From the sequence record NC_135728.1: a stretch of DNA of 64,000 nucleotides; one strand, given 5' to 3'. Made by a program: the position numbers and the translations under genes. The DNA is from a phage. Every line of letters starts with the position of its first letter. The first letter of the stretch is position 1. Shown here piece after piece: positions 1,303 to 64,000 of the stretch. The notes below the pieces were generated by a model. It worked only from the letters and a program-made list of their open reading frames with translations. It was not told where the DNA came from and made no database searches.

Positions 1303-1653
1303 CTAACCAGTTGTTGACATTCGAATAACTTCTTCTGGTGGCAAAACTTTGGAAAATGTGCATCTTTTACCTCTCCCTTGTGTGGATGTTTCAACAACTC
1401 CTGCACATTCTAAAGTTTTAACGCACGCTGCTGCTTTTGTTTTCTTTATCCCAACATCTGCTGCAATTTTCCTTGTGCTTGGTGTGAAGTGTGAATTTCC
1501 TCCAAGCTTATACCAGTTGTGCAGGTAGCAGTATACAATCTTGTCATACAAGTCAAGAACAACAACCTCCCCAGTTGTGTCATTCAAAACTTTTGACATA
1601 GATAGTATTTCAAGGGGGACTTTAAGATATAGCAGCTTATCCCCATCTTTCAT
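1303..1653 (-). CDS. small putative DNA-binding protein (HTH-like segment)
   Basis: 116 aa ORF; segment STRKIAADVGIKKTKAAACVKTLECAGVV resembles a helix-turn-helix; adjacent to the palindrome array. Confidence 0.45.
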   Translation of the reverse strand: MKDGDKLLYLKVPLEILSMSKVLNDTTGEVVVLDLYDKIVYCYLHNWYKLGGNSHFTPSTRKIAADVGIKKTKAAACVKTLECAGVVETSTQGRGKRCTFSKVLPPEEVIRMSTTG

Positions 1654-1700: not shown

Positions 1701-2255
1701 TTACTCCCTGCTGTCAATATCAAAACTCATTGCAATACGGTATGCCTCTTCTAATGGTAAGAGTCTCCCCCACACATCCCAACCGACATCAAACTGTCTA
1801 CCAAACAACTGTTGTGTGGTTCCGTGAGCATGACCGAACAGTTGGACTGATCCGTGATGCTTTCTGTTCCACGTTGCAAACTGGTAATGGCTCATACAGA
1901 TCAAATTCTTGTTGTGGCGAAGCTCGTAATAATCTACAACCTCATGACCGAACTCTTTCATAATTCTGACAGTCGTCCTTGTGTCATGGTTGCCACGAAC
2001 AAGAATAATATGTCCGTTCAACATATTTAGAATATCTGGAAGTAAGTTGTTGATATTCTTATCATTAGTGCACGCAATATCTCCCAGGTGGAACACAGTG
2101 TCTGCAGGTGACACAACTGAGTTCCACTCGGTGATGATTCCCGCATTCATACTGTCAAGATTGTGATCATATTGAGATCTGTGTTTTTGACATGAATCAA
2201 ACTCCATGACCCGCTGGTGGAGAAAGTGCGTATCGCTTGTTACAAAGTATTTCAT
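1701..2255 (-). CDS. calcineurin-like metallophosphoesterase
   Basis: Motifs SDTHF (DxH), HLGDIxxxN, GNHD, GHxH; start set at MKYFVTSDTHF with GAGGAA RBS (track ORF runs further upstream into the next gene). Confidence 0.75.
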   Translation of the reverse strand: MKYFVTSDTHFLHQRVMEFDSCQKHRSQYDHNLDSMNAGIITEWNSVVSPADTVFHLGDIACTNDKNINNLLPDILNMLNGHIILVRGNHDTRTTVRIMKEFGHEVVDYYELRHNKNLICMSHYQFATWNRKHHGSVQLFGHAHGTTQQLFGRQFDVGWDVWGRLLPLEEAYRIAMSFDIDSRE

Positions 2256-2262
2256 ACATTCC

Positions 2263-2673
2263 TCATTTAAGTTTAATGCAGTTTTTAAGCTGGCGTTCCA
2301 TACGATCCACAACCTTGTCTGGAACATCATGAATGCTTTTATTACCGTGGCGGTTTTCAACCACGATTACGGTATAACTATACCCATGACTGATTGCCAT
2401 GTCAACATATTCCTGCACATGTTTTTCTTTTGTAAACGTATTACTTACCACGATACGGTCGTATCCCATACACATCATATCTTCTACGTTATCTTTGCAC
2501 CATTTTGCTGCGAGTGTTACTTTACTTGCATCCCAGTTGTAATTGCCGTCATCGTCATACCAAAACATGTCATTCTCAAAATGTGGATACAGACCTTCTA
2601 AAGATAGCGCATTTGCCAGTGTTGATTTGCCAGACCCTGGCAGACCACGCACGATATATAGCATTTTAGACAT
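2263..2673 (-). CDS. P-loop kinase, polynucleotide 5'-kinase-like
   Basis: Walker A GLPGSGKST right after the start, as in T4 Pnk kinase domain; GGAGGA RBS before ATG at 2673. Confidence 0.6.
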   Translation of the reverse strand: MSKMLYIVRGLPGSGKSTLANALSLEGLYPHFENDMFWYDDDGNYNWDASKVTLAAKWCKDNVEDMMCMGYDRIVVSNTFTKEKHVQEYVDMAISHGYSYTVIVVENRHGNKSIHDVPDKVVDRMERQLKNCIKLK

Positions 2674-2701
2674 AGCAATCCTCCGTTTTAATTTTAATGA
2701 T

Positions 2702-2730
2702 AGTATACCTAACTGTTTTGTTAATTTCAA
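2702..2730 (-). promoter_or_regulatory. sigma70-like promoter (TTGAAA-17-TATACT) for the kinase/phosphatase operon
   Basis: Read on minus strand just upstream of the kinase RBS. Confidence 0.45.
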
Positions 2731-2791
2731 GTGTTGACACCAGGTTGTTTGTGTGGCAGGATAGACTGACAAAATGACAAATGAGGAACGT

Positions 2792-3709
2792 ATGATGAAG
2801 TATTTTAATGCAGATGACCTAGTAGACAAAGGTCTTGTAACCAGTCGGTATTATCCAGATCTTGGATTAAAGATCTATAAATATGCCAGAAAAGTATTCT
2901 ACAACAATCTGTGGCATTTGTCTCCGCGTTTACTGGAGTGCCGAGGTATTGTTGTTGGCAATGAGGGGAATGTTGTGGCATGGCCTTTCACAAAAGTATT
3001 CAACTTAGGAGAAAACTCCACCAACCTACCGGACAGTAAACTTGTTACTGCGGTAGAGAAAAAGAACGGATTCCTCGGTGTGGTATCATCTCATAAAGGT
3101 GAACTATTGTTCTCAACAACCGGGTCTCTTGATTCCCCATATTGTAACCTCGCAAAAGAAACCATCAGGGAGCAATGTGGTAATTTAGATCTTATCAAGA
3201 AGGTTATGGGCAATGAAAACATGACATTCATGTTTGAAATTTGCCACCCTTCAGATCCGCATATTGTTCAGGAAGATCATGGCGCATATTTGATAGGTTG
3301 CAGATATAATGATTCTGGAATAATGCTACCAGAAGCAGCTTTAGATGGGATTGCCAAATACCTTGGTGCAAAACGTCCTCACACTGTGCGTGAAATTCCG
3401 TTCAGCTATGCAAAAGAATTAGCTGCAGAAACAAGAGGTGAAGGGTATATGATTCGTAAGCCTTACTACCCTTATGATCTGCAGCTGAAGATCAAGTCTC
3501 CATACTATCTGGCACGGAAGGCAGTAATGAGGGGTAAAGCTTGGAAGATTTGGGATGATGATATCTTTAAACGTGTTGACGAAGAGTTTTACGGTATGGT
3601 AAAATTTATTCGTAGCAACTATACAGAAGATGTGTGGAATTGCTTATTAGAGCAGGAGCGTCGTGAGATACTGGACTACTATTTCCACAACGAGGACTAT
3701 ATGCAATGA
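2792..3709 (+). CDS. ATP-dependent RNA ligase-like nucleotidyltransferase (Rnl1/Trl1-type KxNG motif)
   Basis: Motif I-like EKKNGFLGVV (cf. Trl1 KANG, T4 Rnl1 KEDG); GAGGAA RBS before ATG 2792; divergent from the kinase/phosphatase genes. Confidence 0.55.
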   Translation: MMKYFNADDLVDKGLVTSRYYPDLGLKIYKYARKVFYNNLWHLSPRLLECRGIVVGNEGNVVAWPFTKVFNLGENSTNLPDSKLVTAVEKKNGFLGVVSSHKGELLFSTTGSLDSPYCNLAKETIREQCGNLDLIKKVMGNENMTFMFEICHPSDPHIVQEDHGAYLIGCRYNDSGIMLPEAALDGIAKYLGAKRPHTVREIPFSYAKELAAETRGEGYMIRKPYYPYDLQLKIKSPYYLARKAVMRGKAWKIWDDDIFKRVDEEFYGMVKFIRSNYTEDVWNCLLEQERREILDYYFHNEDYMQ

Positions 3710-4056
3710 AGAAGTGGATTGTGTGGCTTGATGATTTTAGAGATCCGTCAGATTATGGACTCCCAGACGCTCTGTGGCTAAAGAATTCTTCTGAGTTTAT
3801 GGATTTTCTTAATGATAAGAGAAAGCTCTACAGACGCGTATCTGAGTGGTATTTTGACAATGATCTAGGTGAAGTGCTTGAAGGGTACGACTGCTTCTCT
3901 GCGCTAGAGGAGAAATTTGTATTCGGAAAGCCACCACTTATTGACAACGTGATTATTTTCGTGCATACTTCTAATCCATCGGCAGCTCGTAAATTTATGC
4001 TTGCTGCTGACTCATTCAAGAAGTTTGGAATAGAGATCAAACAAAACATCTACTAA
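3706..4056 (+). CDS. hypothetical protein (116 aa)
   Basis: ATGA start/stop overlap with the ligase gene; no recognised motif. Confidence 0.5.
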   Translation: MKKWIVWLDDFRDPSDYGLPDALWLKNSSEFMDFLNDKRKLYRRVSEWYFDNDLGEVLEGYDCFSALEEKFVFGKPPLIDNVIIFVHTSNPSAARKFMLAADSFKKFGIEIKQNIY

Positions 4057-4064
4057 GGACATTT

Positions 4065-4826
4065 ATGCGACGACTGATTATTATCTCCGGTGCTGGTTTG
4101 AGCGCTGAATCTGGTATTCCAACTTTCCGATCTGGTAGCACTGCAATGTGGGAGAATTTCAGCATCGATGAGGTGTGCAACATCCACACCTTTGCCAAGA
4201 ACTACTATAAGGTGCATGACTTTTACAATGCACGTCGTGTAGCTCTGGGCAGTGTTGATCCTAACCTTGCACATCTTCGGATCGCTGAGTGGTATTCCCG
4301 CTGGCCTGGTCGTGTGATCAACCTTACCACCAATGTAGATGATTTGCTGGAGCGTGCTGGTGTAAAACATGAAGATATTTTACATGTCCACGGGTATTTG
4401 CCTGAAATCACCTACGAAGATGCTGAAGGTAACGATGTAATTAAAAATATCGGATACACGGAGGTAGATACAGGCAAGTATACCTGGGTTAAGCCTAATG
4501 TAGTGTTCTTCGGTGAGGTTGCTCCTAAGTATACAGACATGTATGACCTGTTGACATCTCTCACAAGCAATGATATGGTGATCCTGGTAGGTTGTTCTAA
4601 CACAGTTATTAATTTTAACTGGGAATTGTTTCCTGCTACTTGTAAAGGCACAAAACTGCTGATTGTAAACAAGTATGACTCGCAGAGTGCAGATGGAAGT
4701 GGCATTTCACGTAGCGACCTTTATCAATATGAGGATCGCGGGATCCCTGTATGGTTTAACGGTGCTGTTGACGCTTTCTCTGATAAAGCATTTATTGAAA
4801 CTGTAGAAAACTTTATGGAACTTTAA
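4065..4826 (+). CDS. Sir2-family NAD-dependent deacylase / ADP-ribosyltransferase homolog
   Basis: GAGLSAESGIPTFR (sirtuin GAGxSxxxGIPxFR), TTNVDDL, catalytic-His region LHVHGY, VVFFGE; no Zn-ribbon cysteines. Confidence 0.8.
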   Translation: MRRLIIISGAGLSAESGIPTFRSGSTAMWENFSIDEVCNIHTFAKNYYKVHDFYNARRVALGSVDPNLAHLRIAEWYSRWPGRVINLTTNVDDLLERAGVKHEDILHVHGYLPEITYEDAEGNDVIKNIGYTEVDTGKYTWVKPNVVFFGEVAPKYTDMYDLLTSLTSNDMVILVGCSNTVINFNWELFPATCKGTKLLIVNKYDSQSADGSGISRSDLYQYEDRGIPVWFNGAVDAFSDKAFIETVENFMEL

Positions 4827-4839
4827 AAGGAGACCTTTA

Positions 4840-5553
4840 ATGCTGAATACTAAACTGATCGACAACCTGGAAAAACTGTCTCAGCCTGAAAACTACCTTT
4901 GGTCTGCCAACTGGGTGGAAAACTGGAACCGTGTGGCAGCTAAAGTGAAAAAATCATACACACCATTCGAATTACAGCTTAGCTTCATTGAGGAAGAGTT
5001 CAATGAGGTTTTGGAAGAGCTGGAGAAAGGTGATGGTGGAGATCACCTGCTAAAAGAGGCCTGCGATCTTCACGTTGTCACAAGTTATGCCGCTTATCTT
5101 GTTAATGACAATCACGAAAAGTGGTCAAACCTGTTTGATAATCCACGAGGTCTTAAGTTCAAGATCGGTGAGTTCTATGATACACTGATCGCTGCGAAAA
5201 ACACATCCAAGCAAAGAGCGTCAGCTTACCGCTTAGCGGAGTTGTCAACAGCTTTGCTGTTCCAGCTTCGCGGAGATGTGTGTGGGATGATGCGGAAGGT
5301 TCTCAAATCTAATGACAGTAAGTTTGCACGGATCAACCATCTACGGCATTCACACGGTGCCAGTGCAGATATGCCTGCTGAACAACTCATCGAGTTGGAG
5401 ATTAAAGATCTTGAGCGTCGTTTTGGTGGTCGCTACGAAGGTTTCGTTGCTAAAGAGGAGTTCTACAACGGCAATAAAGTTATTATATTCCTTGACAGTA
5501 AAGGTAAGATTATGAAGCCTTCGAGCTTCAAGGATGTAACAGAGTATATTTAA
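4840..5553 (+). CDS. hypothetical protein; weak MazG-like NTP pyrophosphohydrolase resemblance
   Basis: AAGGAG RBS; segment IEEEFNEVLEELEKGDGGDHLLKEACDL resembles the MazG EExxE..D helix; assignment tentative. Confidence 0.5.
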   Translation: MLNTKLIDNLEKLSQPENYLWSANWVENWNRVAAKVKKSYTPFELQLSFIEEEFNEVLEELEKGDGGDHLLKEACDLHVVTSYAAYLVNDNHEKWSNLFDNPRGLKFKIGEFYDTLIAAKNTSKQRASAYRLAELSTALLFQLRGDVCGMMRKVLKSNDSKFARINHLRHSHGASADMPAEQLIELEIKDLERRFGGRYEGFVAKEEFYNGNKVIIFLDSKGKIMKPSSFKDVTEYI

Positions 5554-5559
5554 CAACAT

Positions 5560-5586
5560 AGCCGGGATTACCCGGCTTTACTTATT
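5560..5586 (+). terminator. rho-independent terminator
   Basis: AGCCGGG-ATTA-CCCGGCT hairpin followed by TTTACTTATT. Confidence 0.6.
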
Positions 5587-5924: not shown

Positions 5925-6180
5925 TCTTGCTAAACCTGTAGAAGCACACCAGTTTGACGGAAGCTCTTCATCAGTATCTGATCTGCAACGGTGGATTGAT
6001 ACTGGTGTGTTTACATCGTCGCCTGTTCGGACCAGAGATATTCGTCGCATGTGTGAGCTTATCGAGCCGTTTGGTAACCTTGTCTTGTACCAGGGAGATT
6101 GGCTAGTTGACTTTATGGGAGACTGGTTGGTAATGAGTAAAGAAGAGATGTTTAAAATTTTTAAGGAAGAGGCCGAGTAA
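5911..6180 (+). CDS. hypothetical protein
   Basis: AGGAGG RBS; stop overlaps the ligase start (TAATG). Confidence 0.5.
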   Translation: MPLFNLAKPVEAHQFDGSSSSVSDLQRWIDTGVFTSSPVRTRDIRRMCELIEPFGNLVLYQGDWLVDFMGDWLVMSKEEMFKIFKEEAE

Positions 6181-7463
6181 TGCATCAAATCAAAACAACA
6201 CTGTACGCACTGAACAAAGATGGCAGCTACCAACAGTGGAAAGTATTCACTGATGGCGAAAAGGTTATCGTAGAGTTTGGCAAGCTTGACGGTAAATTGC
6301 AGTACAAAGAGACGGTATGCACACCTAAGAACGTAGGTCGTGCCAACGAGACTACAGCTGAGCAACAGGCCGAGCTTGAGGCTATCAGCAAGTGGGAAAA
6401 ACAAGTCCGCCTGGGGTATGTTGAAAACATGGAAGATTGCGAGCAGGGTGTTGATCTTTTACCCATGCTGGTGCATGACTACCTGAAGCGTGGCAAGGCA
6501 CTTAAATTACCTTGCTGGATCTTGCGTAAGTTAGATGGTCTTCGTCTGCTTGTTGTTTTCCAAAATGGTGAGCCTAAATTTATTTCCCGTGGTAATAAGT
6601 CCTACCCTATTCAAGGAAAGCTTTTAGAGCAACTTCGTTCTTTCCATTCTACCACTAGGATTAAACAACTTGATGGGGAACTATACATTCATGGTCTTCC
6701 TTTGCAGAAAATAGTGTCTCTTGCTAAACGGTGGCGCACACAGGAAGAGATTCAGGCCGAGATCGATAAAGACTATGAGGCAGATAAAAAACGCCGTCAT
6801 GCAGCAATTAAGGCAGGCTTATCAACATACAAAAACTTCAACAAGGTAGATATTCCTGTCGATGTTGAGCCTGTTCGTGATGATTTGCGTTACGGCGGGT
6901 ACTGTAGCTACGATCTGGAGTATCACATTTTTGATATTCCTAGCGACAAGGTGTGGTGGGATCCAGAAACAGAGTCTGGGCGCTGCAAGGATCTTATGGA
7001 TGCAGAGGATACCGTTACCACTCTGATGCTTGATCATATCAAGGTTGTTGACGCAGAGCTTGCGTACACAGTTGATCATTGCGAAGAATCTGTTGGTATA
7101 TTCATGTCCGAAGGATATGAAGGTACTATCATGCGTAATTTCTGCGGTAAATATGAGTATGGTCAGCGAACATCTGAAGCATTGAAATGGAAAAAGTTCA
7201 ACGACGCAGAGGTGAAAGTTATTGACGTTGAGAAAGATAAGAATGATGAAGGTGTTCTTATCTGTGTTGACAAGGAAGGTGTTGTTGTTAAAATGAAGAT
7301 GAAAGGCACGCACGAGGAGCGTAGCTATGACAGGATGCAGGAAATGATCGGCAAGTTTGTCACCTTCAAATACCAAGCAAGGACAGAAGACAACAACTAC
7401 CAATTCCCTGTCGGTATCTGCGTCCGAAATGTTAACCCAGACACTTGGGAGGTGCTTGAATGA
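6180..7463 (+). CDS. ATP-dependent DNA ligase
   Basis: Motif I RKLDGLR (KxDGxR), motif III-like QLDGELYIHG, EGYEGTIMR. Confidence 0.8.
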   Translation: MHQIKTTLYALNKDGSYQQWKVFTDGEKVIVEFGKLDGKLQYKETVCTPKNVGRANETTAEQQAELEAISKWEKQVRLGYVENMEDCEQGVDLLPMLVHDYLKRGKALKLPCWILRKLDGLRLLVVFQNGEPKFISRGNKSYPIQGKLLEQLRSFHSTTRIKQLDGELYIHGLPLQKIVSLAKRWRTQEEIQAEIDKDYEADKKRRHAAIKAGLSTYKNFNKVDIPVDVEPVRDDLRYGGYCSYDLEYHIFDIPSDKVWWDPETESGRCKDLMDAEDTVTTLMLDHIKVVDAELAYTVDHCEESVGIFMSEGYEGTIMRNFCGKYEYGQRTSEALKWKKFNDAEVKVIDVEKDKNDEGVLICVDKEGVVVKMKMKGTHEERSYDRMQEMIGKFVTFKYQARTEDNNYQFPVGICVRNVNPDTWEVLE

Positions 7464-62207: not shown

Positions 62208-62483
62208 CAATAGTTCAGGTAGGTCGTTAAGCTACCCCGCACCATTACGTGCATAGCCATACGTTTTCACGTAGGATCGGACCATCTCATATTCCTATGA
62301 TAAGCAACCACAGGAATCCTCCCATTTCGACCGCACTTGCTGGTCTACTTCCTTTCGGAATGGCCTCTGAGCGTTCGCTCTTTTGAGCGCTTCGTTGCGG
62401 ATTACCTTGCCATAAGGTTTAGGCTTCCCGCAGTTAAAGAGGTTATTCGACATAGATTACTCTATGAAGCCACAATGTTATTT
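62208..62483 (-). ncRNA. putative group I self-splicing intron (276 nt) in the DNA polymerase gene
   Basis: Interrupts the ORF between the H and D codons of motif C; exon ends in U, intron ends in G; GUGG guide 11 nt into intron can pair with exon CCAU; P-like CUGCGGGAAG, Q-like AAUCCGCAAC, P7 strands GACCA / UGGUC. Confidence 0.65.
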
Positions 62484-64000
62484 ATGGTAATAAATAATAC
62501 GACGAACACCTTCATCGTACCACCCACGCTTCACCATTTGGTGGTGCATGAGTATCCCAACTAAGTCACACAGCGATGCACCACCATTTTGTTGGTATGC
62601 ATTAAGTAAAGAGTGTTTAGATCTGGTCCAGATAGCATGACCATCGAAAGAGTAGATAAACTTCTTACCTGTTGCTTCCCAGAATTTCTCCAGATCCTCT
62701 TTGCGCCCCTTAAGACCGGGGTTGGCATCCCAAAGTGCATCTATTACCCTTTGCCCCAACTCTGGAGAGATGTCCAACATATCTGCAACTTTATCTTTTT
62801 GTGCCCCGTACATAACACCATACGTGATAGGTTTACCGTCGTTACGGGACACCTCTCTGCCTGCTACTTTTGTATATGCCTCGGCATTGTTTTGGTGTGC
62901 GTCTCCGTTACTTACAACATCATAATACAGGCCGTTGTCGAACTCAAAGGCACCCCAAGCCCCGATAAGCTGCTCTAAGTTGGACCCGTCAATACCGATC
63001 TGAAAGTATCCGGGAGGAACACCCCATAGACTACGCATCTCTTTACCCATAACCACTTTAGGAGATGGTTTAGGCATGTTTGCACAAATACTGTGTTTCT
63101 GTCTGGAAGTGTTTGTTAGCCCAGAACTTTTAGCAGGAAGCTTATGGTCAATCTTCAAACGTGGGTGATTAAGAAGACCAGTATCAACCTTATCCTCCTT
63201 GATTGGGTCAAGGACCGATCTGCGGTTTCGCAATGATAACCACAAGACGATATCTTTAGCCATCTCTCCGTTCAATTTTTCAAGATTCGGACACAGGTGT
63301 CCAAACGTATCTTTCAGTTGCGGAGAAGTAATAAGTGCCCTGGCTTTTCTACGTATTTTCCCGAACACTTCCTTTTTAATCCTTTCGGAGTTAGGAAAGC
63401 TTCGGAACTTGTGCACGGTTGTCTGGAACTTAGCATCAGTTTTGTTCCAGAAGTTGATAATTAGGTCACAATACTCTGACTCTAAAAGCTCGTCCATATA
63501 AGCATATACTCGTGCATCAACATCTGCATCAGGTAGAGCTTTCTTCTTGCTGTCTTTAGTTACATCCTTAGTTCTCCACATTGTCGGGAGCCAGCCAGCG
63601 CTGATCAGATACCGCTTAATGTCGTCCTGATTGCTGATTTTCATAGGTATCTTGCAGTCCGGCATTCGCTTCTGCTGTAGATCACTTATTGCCTGATCCA
63701 TCAGCTCTTTAGGCAAAGGGTGTGGTGTGGAAGTTCCCTTAATATAGCCTCTCAAGAAATCAGCCATCTTATCGGGGTCTTTGCAGCCCATCTCTTCACA
63801 CCATTTTATCCCCATCTTGCTGACATCCCCTGTAGAGGTAAATGCTCTCTTAGGCGGGGCTTTGAACTCTAAAGCGCTCATGTCTACAGGATAGCCAAGC
63901 TTATCTTTTAACCATTTCCAACCATTATTAGAGATTGTCCCGTCTTGGTTAAACGGCTTTTCAGGGAACTTGGGCCGCTGAGACATTGACAGCTCTTTTA
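62484..64000 (-). CDS. DNA polymerase family A, exon 1 (partial; N-terminus may lie beyond the window)
   Basis: Motif B-like KPITYGVMYGAQ; ends ...VRRIIYYH (cf. Pol I RMIMQVH-DE); reading frame stays open upstream of the track start at 63986. Confidence 0.8.

Follow-up and report, generated by a model that had tools for sequence, protein, structure and literature searches.

A zinc-less sirtuin in a candidate RNA end-repair cassette of an rV5-like phage

The sirtuin gene described here lies in a region which we tentatively read, with slightly less than even confidence, as a cassette by which an rV5-like phage (Vequintavirus) heals and seals RNA ends, probably those of tRNA. The cluster is already known as a computational prediction of NAD+-dependent RNA repair. 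Section 3.7.3 of Iyer, Burroughs, Anantharaman & Aravind (2022, Viruses 14:1977; PMC9503650) describes the same neighbourhood with Escherichia phage V5 as prototype, so that a sequence-only reading of this DNA, which had not recognised a described system, has to be revised. [quoted passage not shown] The sirtuin is predicted there to use NAD+ for the removal of RNA 2'-phosphates, as KptA/Tpt1 do. The window, i.e. the whole stretch of 64,000 nt that was analysed (sequence record NC_135728.1), holds an instance of this neighbourhood with all six components within 1701–5553, and nothing substantive differs. No experimental test of any cluster member was found in the searchable literature.

The details added here are the exact operon boundaries, the divergent arrangement in Vequintavirus as compared to a co-linear one in Mydo-like phages, the nearness of the MazG-like protein to dimeric dUTPases, the YxxR motif of the sirtuin, and the finding that about half of the Sir2 clusters stand outside a recognisable RNA-repair context. 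Because RNA ligase, kinase and phosphoesterase occur together in this context, the favoured reading moves from protein modification or alarmone handling, which had been considered before, to RNA end repair.

Genomic location and operon structure

The window belongs to a Vequintavirus, an rV5-like E. coli phage, and is 98.9% identical to Escherichia phage EmilHeitz; the identity to phage V5 is 96.9% over the region. The independent annotation of EmilHeitz names a polynucleotide kinase, a phosphoesterase, an RNA ligase and a sirtuin, the last being the counterpart of the gene at 4065–4826, and places a cluster of tRNA genes about 3.5 kb from the locus. The features are compiled in Table 1.

Table 1. 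Features of the sirtuin locus in the window
Feature	Position	Strand	Evidence	Label in EmilHeitz
Small protein with HTH (116 aa), final gene in the divergent unit	1303..1653	-	Pfam DUF6945 (1e-6), HTH_36 (1.8e-5)	putative transcriptional regulator
Calcineurin-like metallophosphoesterase, 184 aa from MKYFVTSDTHF	1701..2255	-	Pfam Metallophos	putative phosphoesterase
P-loop kinase, 136 aa, GLPGSGKST, polynucleotide 5'-kinase-like	2263..2673	-	Pfam AAA_33 (1.7e-9)	polynucleotide kinase
Divergent intergenic control region, kinase/RNA ligase	2674..2791	.	Sequence and promoter scan, consensus matches only	
T4 Rnl1-like ATP-dependent RNA ligase, 305 aa	2792..3709	+	Pfam RNA_lig_T4_1, PHROG 562	
cREC domain protein, 116 aa, receiver-fold predicted phosphoesterase	3706..4056	+	Pfam PF20274	
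Zn-less class III-like sirtuin, 253 aa	4065..4826	+	Pfam SIR2, PHROG 2162, CobB alignment, AF2/Foldseek	
All-alpha NTP pyrophosphohydrolase superfamily protein, 237 aa	4840..5553	+	Helical core like dimeric dUTPase or MazG	
Intrinsic-terminator-like hairpin AGCCGGG-ATTA-CCCGGCT with T-rich tail	5560..5577	+	Terminator scan	

Four plus-strand genes form an operon in the order RNA ligase, cREC, Sir2 and MazG-like, which is closed by a hairpin terminator (7-bp stem with 6 GC pairs) 7 nt past the MazG-like stop codon. Spacing and terminator confirm that the small protein upstream of the sirtuin and the MazG-superfamily protein downstream of it belong to one operon. Its extent had been taken too short, however, as its first gene is that of the RNA ligase, and a minus-strand unit with the PNK-like P-loop kinase and the metallophosphoesterase diverges from it. 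The HTH protein at the end of that unit is possibly a regulator of the region. A true ATGA overlap (3706–3709) exists between the RNA ligase stop and the cREC start; the translational coupling claimed for the cREC and sirtuin genes holds only in a loose sense, as an 8-nt spacer with the Shine-Dalgarno sequence AAGGA separates them. A 13-nt spacer, also containing a Shine-Dalgarno sequence, precedes the MazG-like gene. Putative promoters in the control region are sigma70-like hexamers on the minus strand and TTGACA at 2734–2739 on the plus strand. The longest frame for the RNA ligase begins at 2774, but the ATG at 2792 is preceded by GAGGA and agrees with the EmilHeitz annotation and with homologues.

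A sirtuin without zinc ribbon

The protein matches Pfam SIR2 (PF02146) over profile positions 1–178 of 180 with E=1.1e-27 (97.6 bits, cut-off 24), PHROG 2162 with E=9e-109 and E. coli CobB (1s5p) with E=5.7e-21; as judged by these profiles, its similarity to the Sir2 family is far beyond chance. The landmarks by which it had been recognised can all be read from the translation: GAGLSAESGIPTFR at residues 9–22, TTNVDDL at 88–94, HVHGY at 107–111 and VVFFGE at 146–151. The key residues are G9-A-G, S16, F21-R22, Y54/R57 (YxxR), N90, D92, the catalytic H109, F149-G-E151 and G176-x-S178. Among 62 sequences, down to 42% identity, G9-A-G, S16, G17, F21, R22, Y54, R58, N90, D92, H109, E151, G176 and S178 are invariant. 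GAGxS...GIxxFR, the Asn and Asp of TxNxD and the His of HG align to the CobB motifs, and F53-Y54-N-A-R57-R58 equals FYNARR of CobB, Y54 being found in 62 and R57 in 61 of the 62 sequences. Hence the catalytic residues are kept in the alignment. The lack of Zn-ribbon cysteines was also seen correctly: there is not a single Cys between H109 and F148, where CobB bears its Zn-binding cysteines in the alignment.

AF2 predicts with confidence (pLDDT 89.7, pTM 0.88) a Rossmann domain and a small domain, the latter three-stranded despite the loss of the cysteines. Comparison with CobB and defence Sir2 domains, as had been proposed, gave a CobB-like fold: CobB, Sir2Af1 and SIRT5 were the best Foldseek matches (CobB 6rxm/1s5p, E about 1e-17 to 1e-18, TM 0.74–0.85), and defence Sir2 proteins were absent from the top 50. 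Residues and model together let the sirtuin look active.

One explanation would be a plain NAD+ glycohydrolase similar to the Sir2 effectors of defence systems, which lowers host NAD+ for the phage. Sir2 domains can be NADases, and the protein shares with ThsA, DSR1/2, SIR2-HerA and SPARSA (Pfam SIR2_2) the superfamily and the NAD+-binding Rossmann core; its own NAD+-binding residues are conserved. Still, we consider this very improbable. SIR2_2 is matched below threshold (13.2 bits against 24.5, E=0.097), no PADLOC model matches at E<=0.01, and the structural neighbours are deacylases and not ThsA, DSR or SIR2-HerA. A simple NADase should not need the substrate-side FGE loop, YxxR and the catalytic His all at once, yet these are invariant. 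Furthermore, no recognisable NAD+-salvage gene occurs among the annotated genes in the examined part of the 98.9%-identical genome, and in contrast to the defence enzymes the window protein is stand-alone, free of sensor or partner domains and encoded by the phage instead of the host. Thus, the earlier view that it is probably something other than a defence-type NAD+ depleter is supported.

A more serious alternative, although in our view an unlikely one, is that the protein works as an NAD+-dependent protein lysine deacylase of the usual kind (a CobB/SIRT5-like deacetylase or desuccinylase). It would reprogram the acylation of host or phage proteins in the infected cell, and would stand beside RNA-repair genes only because the gene order of a region of nucleotide metabolism was inherited. 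Activation of acetyl-CoA synthetase or de-repression of acylated enzymes would be examples of its effects. The nearest matches by sequence and structure, named above, and the best NCBIfam models ('NAD-dependent protein deacylase', 1e-35) point in this direction. So does the invariance of all landmarks, among them the FGE loop and the Tyr-x-x-Arg of class III, which binds the succinyl/malonyl carboxylate in SIRT5. Beyond the two-domain fold, the motifs GAGxS...FR, FYNxRR, TxN(V/I)D, HG and FGE are common to CobB, SIRT5 and the window protein, and the sequence lacks any feature that would separate it from a protein deacylase (FGE, YxxR, His, Asn and Asp are as in CobB/SIRT5), which counts against RNA repair. 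The whole family is acidic (pI 4.7–6.1; net charge of the window protein about -12). This is unremarkable for a protein-directed enzyme and also speaks against the RNA-repair reading, as we would anticipate a more basic protein if RNA binding were its dedicated function; mild acidity, however, is also seen in the adjacent ligase and kinase.

Several differences argue against such a deacylase. The identity to CobB/SIRT5 is about 25%, a conserved C-terminal extension is present, and the NCBIfam CobB models are scored far below their cut-offs (122.7 bits against 243 for NF040867 and 103 against 320 for NF001755, both equivalogs; 91.9 against 318 for the subfamily NF001753). All four Zn cysteines are missing, and this loss is general: the Zn-ribbon stretch has 0–2 Cys in 58 of 60 related loci, CxxC...CxxC being retained only in two jumbo-phage relatives (L060 and L061). 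To our knowledge, these cysteines are conserved across the characterised sirtuin deacylases. The host, in addition, already encodes CobB. By the above scores, the window sirtuin is not a CobB orthologue and probably not a defence NADase. Zn-less phage sirtuins had already been noted in 2016, and a deacetylase role was proposed for them (PMC5107563).

Proteins encoded next to the sirtuin

The RNA ligase matches RNA_lig_T4_1 with 9.3e-15 (55.5 bits, cut-off 28.3) and PHROG 562 with 1.2e-65, but TIGR02308 of NCBIfam with only 37.6 bits against an equivalog cut-off of 242 (1.3e-9), and a PDB sequence match was not found. By these values it is a distant member of the Rnl1 family rather than a T4 Rnl1 orthologue.

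The 116-aa protein preceding the sirtuin had been called uncharacterised, but it is a cREC domain protein (cREC_REC, PF20274, profile positions 2–83 of 88, E=2.3e-13, 51.1 bits against a cut-off of 27; PHROG 1479, 8e-33). PF20274 is carried by 53 of its 54 database homologues, the exception being a 63-aa fragment. Conserved residues are D9, D10 and R12, D51-N-D53-L-G, H87-T-S-N-P and K96; across 23 aligned homologues D51, D53, S89 and K96 never vary, D9 and D10 hardly do, and T88 is conserved in at least 90%. These residues indicate a receiver-type acidic active site. The gene is joined to that of an RNA ligase, and no histidine kinase is found among the window ORFs of the neighbourhood or in the EmilHeitz annotation. 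The rationale for the cREC domain is given in PMC7824862.

The metallophosphoesterase (Pfam Metallophos, 3e-5, 25 bits against 21.5; PDB 1xm7, Aquifex aq_1665, 5e-11) is a candidate 2',3'-cyclic phosphodiesterase/3'-phosphatase for the healing of RNA ends.

The MazG-like protein has a helical-bundle fold with the acidic metal-binding residues EExxE...D (E52, E53, E56, D76), a conserved motif S157-N-D-S-K161 and a C-terminal beta-hairpin. Structurally it is nearest to the dimeric dUTPases. No curated threshold was reached against Pfam PRA-PH (13.7 bits against 21.3; 19.0 bits for the homologue of locus L046); the profile of the PDB MazG 3cra gave E=0.05, and PHROG 671, an uncurated family, is supportive with 1.5e-21. 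Since this gene is located 2–3 kb away in Mydo-like phages, beyond the DNA ligase, and since the surrounding region in the window is rich in nucleotide-metabolism genes, it may be unrelated to Sir2.

Conservation of the neighbourhood in other phages

In Mydo-like loci the genes for phosphoesterase, RNA ligase, cREC, kinase and Sir2 are contiguous on one strand, with the kinase between cREC and Sir2 and directly upstream of the latter. That the tight linkage of the sirtuin to RNA ligase and cREC recurs at protein identities of 42–64% is evidence against a deacylase in a merely inherited position. A second, independent link points the same way: in the unrelated T5-like siphoviruses, T5 itself included, the orthologous Sir2 adjoins an RNA-repair HAD phosphatase, HAD_SAK_2 (4e-20). 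HAD_SAK_2 is defined as 'HAD domain in Swiss Army Knife RNA repair proteins'. With cREC in the window and the Mydo-like loci and HAD_SAK_2 in the T5-like ones, the closest phosphoesterase partner is thus twice of the cREC or HAD type. Both Mydo-like and phi92-like loci have the calcineurin-like phosphoesterase together with kinase and RNA ligase.

The association is lineage-limited. At 75% identity clustering, an RNA-end-processing gene lies within 4 kb of Sir2 in about 11 of 24 clusters, and about half of the clusters lack a recognisable RNA-repair gene in their surroundings. The many phages of the same Sir2 clade without such a neighbour favour the deacylase. In a recurrent group of phages of about 150 kb, Sir2 is adjoined instead by DUF7275/DUF7277 proteins and unknowns, and in two jumbo-phage relatives by an arginase or a nucleoside deoxyribosyltransferase-like gene. 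The myoviruses sharing the ligase/kinase context have similar genome sizes; they may be related lineages, with synteny due to common descent and not to functional coupling.

The sirtuin might also act elsewhere in the NAD+/ADP-ribose network, by mono-ADP-ribosylation of some macromolecule of host or phage, or by processing, together with cREC and the MazG-like protein, NAD+-derived small molecules or NAD-capped RNA, thereby blunting host immune signalling. We regard this as quite improbable. It would fit the reported occurrence of cREC, often Nudix-fused, only in NAD+/ADPr and cyclic-phosphate contexts (PMC7824862, PMC9503650), and an NTP/NDP-pyrophosphohydrolase-type enzyme closing the operon. 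One jumbo-phage relative has the deoxyribosyltransferase-like neighbour (1.2e-33), and the nucleoside 2-deoxyribosyltransferase fold is counted among the NAD-processing domains of the TIR/DrHyd class. In phi92-like loci an uncharacterised 161-aa protein (phrog_652) takes the position of cREC, which suggests an exchangeable product-processing partner; its identification as NADAR is unsupported by any Pfam or PDB match, and this weakens the idea. Likewise, Pfam and PHROG profiles reveal no Macro, NADAR, Nudix or ART partner in the window operon, the sirtuin is dissimilar to the defence and signalling Sir2 models of PADLOC, and we know of no immune signal that is a sirtuin substrate. Deacylation and ADP-ribosylation, both raised in the sequence-only reading, remain as rivals.

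Proposed role in RNA end repair

The sequence shows what the components are, how the operon is built and that catalytic residues are conserved. Following PMC9503650, we infer an RNA 2'-phosphate as substrate and all of the following steps for the RNA-repair cassette. Host anticodon nucleases or toxin RNases would leave 2',3'-cyclic-phosphate and 5'-OH ends. The kinase would phosphorylate the 5' end, and the metallophosphoesterase and/or cREC would open the cyclic phosphate. A 2'-phosphate left at an RNA end or in the resealed junction could then be moved onto NAD+ by the sirtuin, the resulting ADP-ribose product being degraded by cREC and perhaps also by the MazG-like enzyme, while the RNA ligase would seal the break. 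The known chemistry of sirtuins would fit the two steps of Tpt1: an oxygen of the substrate attacks NAD+ at C1', after which the 2'-OH of the ribose, activated by the His, attacks in turn and yields a 1',2'-cyclic species. The invariant Tyr/Arg anion pocket of class III could hold a phosphate instead of the succinyl carboxylate.

For the sirtuin itself, a role as nucleic-acid-directed, NAD+-using 2'-phosphate remover on broken or resealed tRNA appears possible, though we lean against it. It would be a non-homologous replacement of Tpt1/KptA with the Tyr/Arg pocket re-used for phosphate, and removal of the ADP-ribose-cyclic-phosphate product would fall to cREC or, in T5-like phages, to HAD_SAK_2. 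The likeness to KptA/Tpt1 (ART fold) could be one of function only, as the sirtuin fold is unrelated, sequence similarity is lacking, and no Tpt1 family is among its Pfam or NCBIfam matches. It speaks against the RNA-repair reading that E. coli has its own KptA and that in T4-type repair kinase, phosphoesterase and Rnl1 suffice and leave no 2'-phosphate. The idea of a nucleic-acid-directed sirtuin is already in print as a prediction, and the novelty would lie in its demonstration. If true, it would mean a new reaction class for the sirtuin superfamily and a new step in phage counter-defence against tRNA-cleaving immunity.

With T4 Pnkp plus Rnl1 and with Clostridium thermocellum Pnkp-type systems the window shares the combination of P-loop 5'-kinase, 2',3'-end phosphoesterase and Rnl1-family ligase in a phage with tRNA genes. 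Here, however, kinase and phosphoesterase are two distinct polypeptides, and cREC and the sirtuin come in as additional enzymes. The phosphoesterase belongs to the calcineurin-like type, as does that of bacterial Pnkp, whereas T4 Pnkp has a HAD domain instead.

Organization of the sirtuin operon

The sirtuin gene is part of a forward-strand operon in which the genes for an RNA ligase, a cREC domain protein, the sirtuin and a MazG-like protein follow each other up to a terminator, and a kinase, a phosphoesterase and a small HTH protein are encoded divergently (see table). The last three ORFs of this operon were found exactly where the sequence-only reading had placed them. The stop codon of the RNA ligase and the start codon of the 116-aa ORF overlap in the sequence ATGA (3706–3709); spacers of 8 nt with AAGGA and of 13 nt with AAGGAG precede the Sir2 and the MazG-like ORF, respectively. 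For the RNA ligase, the SD-preceded ATG at 2792 is most likely the start rather than 2774, in agreement with the annotation of the related Escherichia phage EmilHeitz. The 116-aa protein belongs to the cREC ('cyclic-phosphate processing receiver') family, which conserves the receiver-like residues D9, D10, D51, D53, T88, S89 and K96.

Features of the operon, its surroundings and related loci
Feature	Position	Strand	Evidence or remark
Calcineurin-like phosphoesterase	1701–2255	divergent	Metallophos 3e-5; EmilHeitz annotation putative phosphoesterase
P-loop kinase	2263–2673	divergent	AAA_33 1.7e-9; EmilHeitz annotation polynucleotide kinase
Small HTH protein		divergent	with kinase and phosphoesterase
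T4 Rnl1-like RNA ligase	upstream of 116-aa ORF	+	Pfam RNA_lig_T4_1 9.3e-15; PHROG 562 1.2e-65
cREC domain protein, 116 aa	3706–4056	+	PF20274, 51 bits (cut-off 27)
Sirtuin, 253 aa	4065–4826	+	Pfam SIR2 1.1e-27; PHROG 2162 'Sir2' 9e-109; E. coli CobB 1s5p 5.7e-21
MazG-like protein, 237 aa	4840–5553	+	PHROG 671 1.5e-21
GC-rich hairpin and T-run closing the operon	5560–5577		sequence and terminator scan
Two small conserved ORFs, 102 and 89 aa	5616–6180	+	phrog_7684 and phrog_14585
ATP-dependent DNA ligase	6180–7463		downstream of operon terminator
Group I intron, complete	62258–62493	-	Rfam RF00028, 64.7 bits, E=4e-14
502-aa ORF	62478–63986	-	
phrog_652 protein, 161–162 aa	L044 6302–6790; L046 6079–6564		between kinase and Sir2
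Jumbo-phage sirtuin relatives	L060 6986–7708 (608 kb); L061 7001–7711 (279 kb)		more distant, 42% identity

A sequence search of the PDB gave no significant match for the cREC protein, the RNA ligase, the kinase or the MazG-like protein, and for the metallophosphoesterase a single one, Aquifex aq_1665, the function of which is unknown. No tRNA genes were found within the window; EmilHeitz carries six of them about 3.5 kb further on, just past the window's start. Two small conserved ORFs lie between the operon terminator and the DNA ligase; in Mydo-like and phi92-like phages, homologues of both accompany the ligase/Sir2 block.

The MazG-like protein matches the curated libraries only weakly (PRA-PH, E=0.085; MazG 3cra profile, E=0.05) and its PHROG family more strongly. 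Its AF2 model is of moderate confidence (pLDDT 74) and had no significant match in a Foldseek search. Homologues with as little as 27% identity all keep residues E52, E53, E56 and D76. On this evidence, therefore, the protein is a member of the all-alpha NTP pyrophosphohydrolase superfamily, nearest to the dimeric dUTPases.

A class III-like sirtuin without zinc ligands

The assignment of the 253-aa protein to the Sir2 family is borne out by its database scores and by its motifs, GAGLSAESGIPTFR at residues 9–22, TTNVDDL at 88–94, HVHGY at 107–111 and VVFFGE at 146–151. The claimed loss of the zinc ligands also holds: the stretch from the catalytic His to the FGE loop, which in the alignment holds the zinc ligands of E. 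coli CobB, contains not a single Cys. Zinc cysteines are missing in 58 of 60 sirtuin loci, and CxxC...CxxC occurs only in the two jumbo-phage relatives. NAD+-binding and catalytic residues are kept in all 62 aligned family members, down to 42% identity. Of the class III motif FYNxRR, the Tyr (Y54) is invariant in the same set and the Arg (R57) is present in 61.

An AF2 model based on an alignment of 31 sequences is confident (pLDDT 89.7, pTM 0.88), with a three-stranded sheet retained in the predicted small domain. The sequence-only reading had proposed a structural comparison with CobB and with Sir2 domains of defence systems. The best PDB matches were CobB (TM 0.74–0.85), Sir2Af1 and SIRT5, and no defence Sir2 appeared among the top 50. 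Together with a PADLOC search without match and a SIR2_2 score below threshold, the structural neighbours, which are deacylases, led us to reject a defence-type Sir2 NADase, and that the protein is a plain NADase we consider very improbable. It is not a CobB equivalog either, since the NCBIfam CobB-type models match at 1e-35 but with 103–123 bits, under half the curated cut-offs of 243–320; on these scores and the lost zinc site we reject a place among the CobB orthologues.

Neighbourhoods in other phages

The 3-kb region is 97–99% identical in about 120 deposited Vequintavirinae genomes (EmilHeitz 98.9%; Murica, FFH2 and V5 96.9%), in which the gene is annotated as Sir2-like or NAD-dependent deacetylase. 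For a wider comparison we used the neighbours in 60 IMG/VR loci encoding sirtuin relatives. The genes for phosphoesterase, RNA ligase, cREC, kinase and Sir2 are contiguous in Vequintavirus and in Mydo-like phages of about 145 kb, with protein identities of 42–64%, and are followed downstream by the genes for DNA ligase and the MazG-like protein. The cREC gene lies upstream of the kinase in the Mydo-like phages and is absent from the phi92-like loci (L044, L046, L053), where the other four genes are kept and a 161-aa phrog_652 protein is found instead. This protein may be a non-homologous substitute for the sirtuin's partner enzyme. Its identity as a NADAR protein is unsupported, as in L044 and L046 it has neither a Pfam nor a PDB sequence match and belongs only to the uncharacterised phrog_652.

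In T5-like siphoviruses, including T5 itself (L003), Sir2 follows NrdD and adjoins a HAD_SAK_2 gene (4e-20), a family named 'HAD domain in Swiss Army Knife RNA repair proteins'. In a recurrent group of phages of about 150 kb (L032–L036, L045, L050) the neighbours are DUF7275/DUF7277 proteins and unknowns, with no recognisable RNA-repair genes adjoining Sir2. The same is true for the jumbo contigs, where the relatives adjoin an arginase-family gene (L060, 8.7e-76) and a nucleoside 2-deoxyribosyltransferase-like gene (L061, 1.2e-33). Altogether, an RNA-end-processing gene is recognisable within 4 kb of Sir2 in approximately 11 of 24 Sir2 clusters (75% identity).

Possible function of the sirtuin

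The sequence-only reading, in which the phage Sir2 would modify proteins or take part in NAD+ handling, was partly right; it missed the RNA-repair context provided by the RNA ligase, cREC, kinase and phosphoesterase nearby. In the best-supported interpretation, which we hold tentatively, these genes form a cassette that heals and seals RNA ends, to which the sirtuin would contribute the NAD+-dependent removal of 2'-phosphates. What the components are and how the operon is built has been established; the RNA 2'-phosphate substrate and all catalytic steps we infer. The reactions of sirtuins and of the RNA 2'-phosphotransferase Tpt1 both start with the attack of a substrate oxygen on C1' of NAD+, and both proceed via attack of the ribose 2'-OH to a 1',2'-cyclic species. 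This common chemistry adds plausibility to 2'-phosphate removal, as does the anion-binding, invariant Tyr/Arg pocket of class III.

However, the sirtuin keeps every feature of a peptide deacylase, and that it is an ordinary protein deacylase is the main alternative, rather unlikely in our view. The protein is also acidic, as is the family uniformly (pI 4.7–6.1), and the association with RNA-repair genes is limited to particular lineages, so that it may be inherited and not functional. Furthermore, kinase, phosphoesterase and Rnl1 are sufficient for T4-type repair, and the host itself encodes KptA. Some other NAD+/ADP-ribose transaction ranks next and appears improbable.

Contrary to the sequence-only reading, this is not an undescribed system: the sirtuin and its neighbourhood are already known. 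The exact same gene configuration was described by Iyer, Burroughs, Anantharaman and Aravind in 2022 (PMC9503650, section 3.7.3), together with two variants, the T5-like one with HAD (SP15) and one in jumbo phages. There, a KptA-like sirtuin was predicted to take off 2'-phosphates derived from 2',3'-cyclic ends; the partner phosphoesterases would either act on the cyclic phosphate, opening it, or take ADP-ribose>p as their substrate. The cREC domain was defined in the same authors' 2021 jumbo-phage paper (PMC7824862). Zn-less phage sirtuins, T5 among them, had been noted by Skliros et al. in 2016 (PMC5107563), who proposed a deacetylase role. A literature search for experimental characterisation of any phage sirtuin found none.

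With the gene annotated and neighbourhood and proposed mechanism in print, the genome scan in itself adds little. Should the prediction be true, RNA phosphate instead of acyl-lysine would constitute a new class of sirtuin substrate, and tRNA repair in rV5, Mydo, T5 and similar phages would include an NAD+-dependent branch. Such a branch would bear on how these phages evade tRNA-cleaving defence systems, anticodon nucleases among them, and could link RNA repair to host NAD+ depletion. The system lends itself to tests: its proteins are small and soluble, the BASEL collection offers phages of E. coli K-12, and the substrates for in vitro work are clear.

Further features of the window

The group I intron starts right at the 3' end of the 502-aa ORF, which by eye resembles the N-terminal portion of a family A DNA polymerase; in that case, a self-splicing intron may interrupt the gene for the phage DNA polymerase. 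In EmilHeitz, the gene for the class III anaerobic ribonucleotide reductase (112928–115635) is annotated as a join of two pieces, and a homing endonuclease ORF lies within it; by collinearity its place in the window is at about 21.9–24.6 kb. This join would be a second intron or an intein-like interruption; Rfam at gathering threshold reports no intron for this region. Finally, about 2 kb at ~40.4–42.5 kb are low in GC (0.36–0.38 vs ~0.44–0.47 in the flanks) and hold short ORFs only, and the EmilHeitz counterpart (94635–97082) has no annotated gene. This stretch coincides with a switch of gene orientation and could represent an origin of replication, a regulatory stretch or non-coding DNA.
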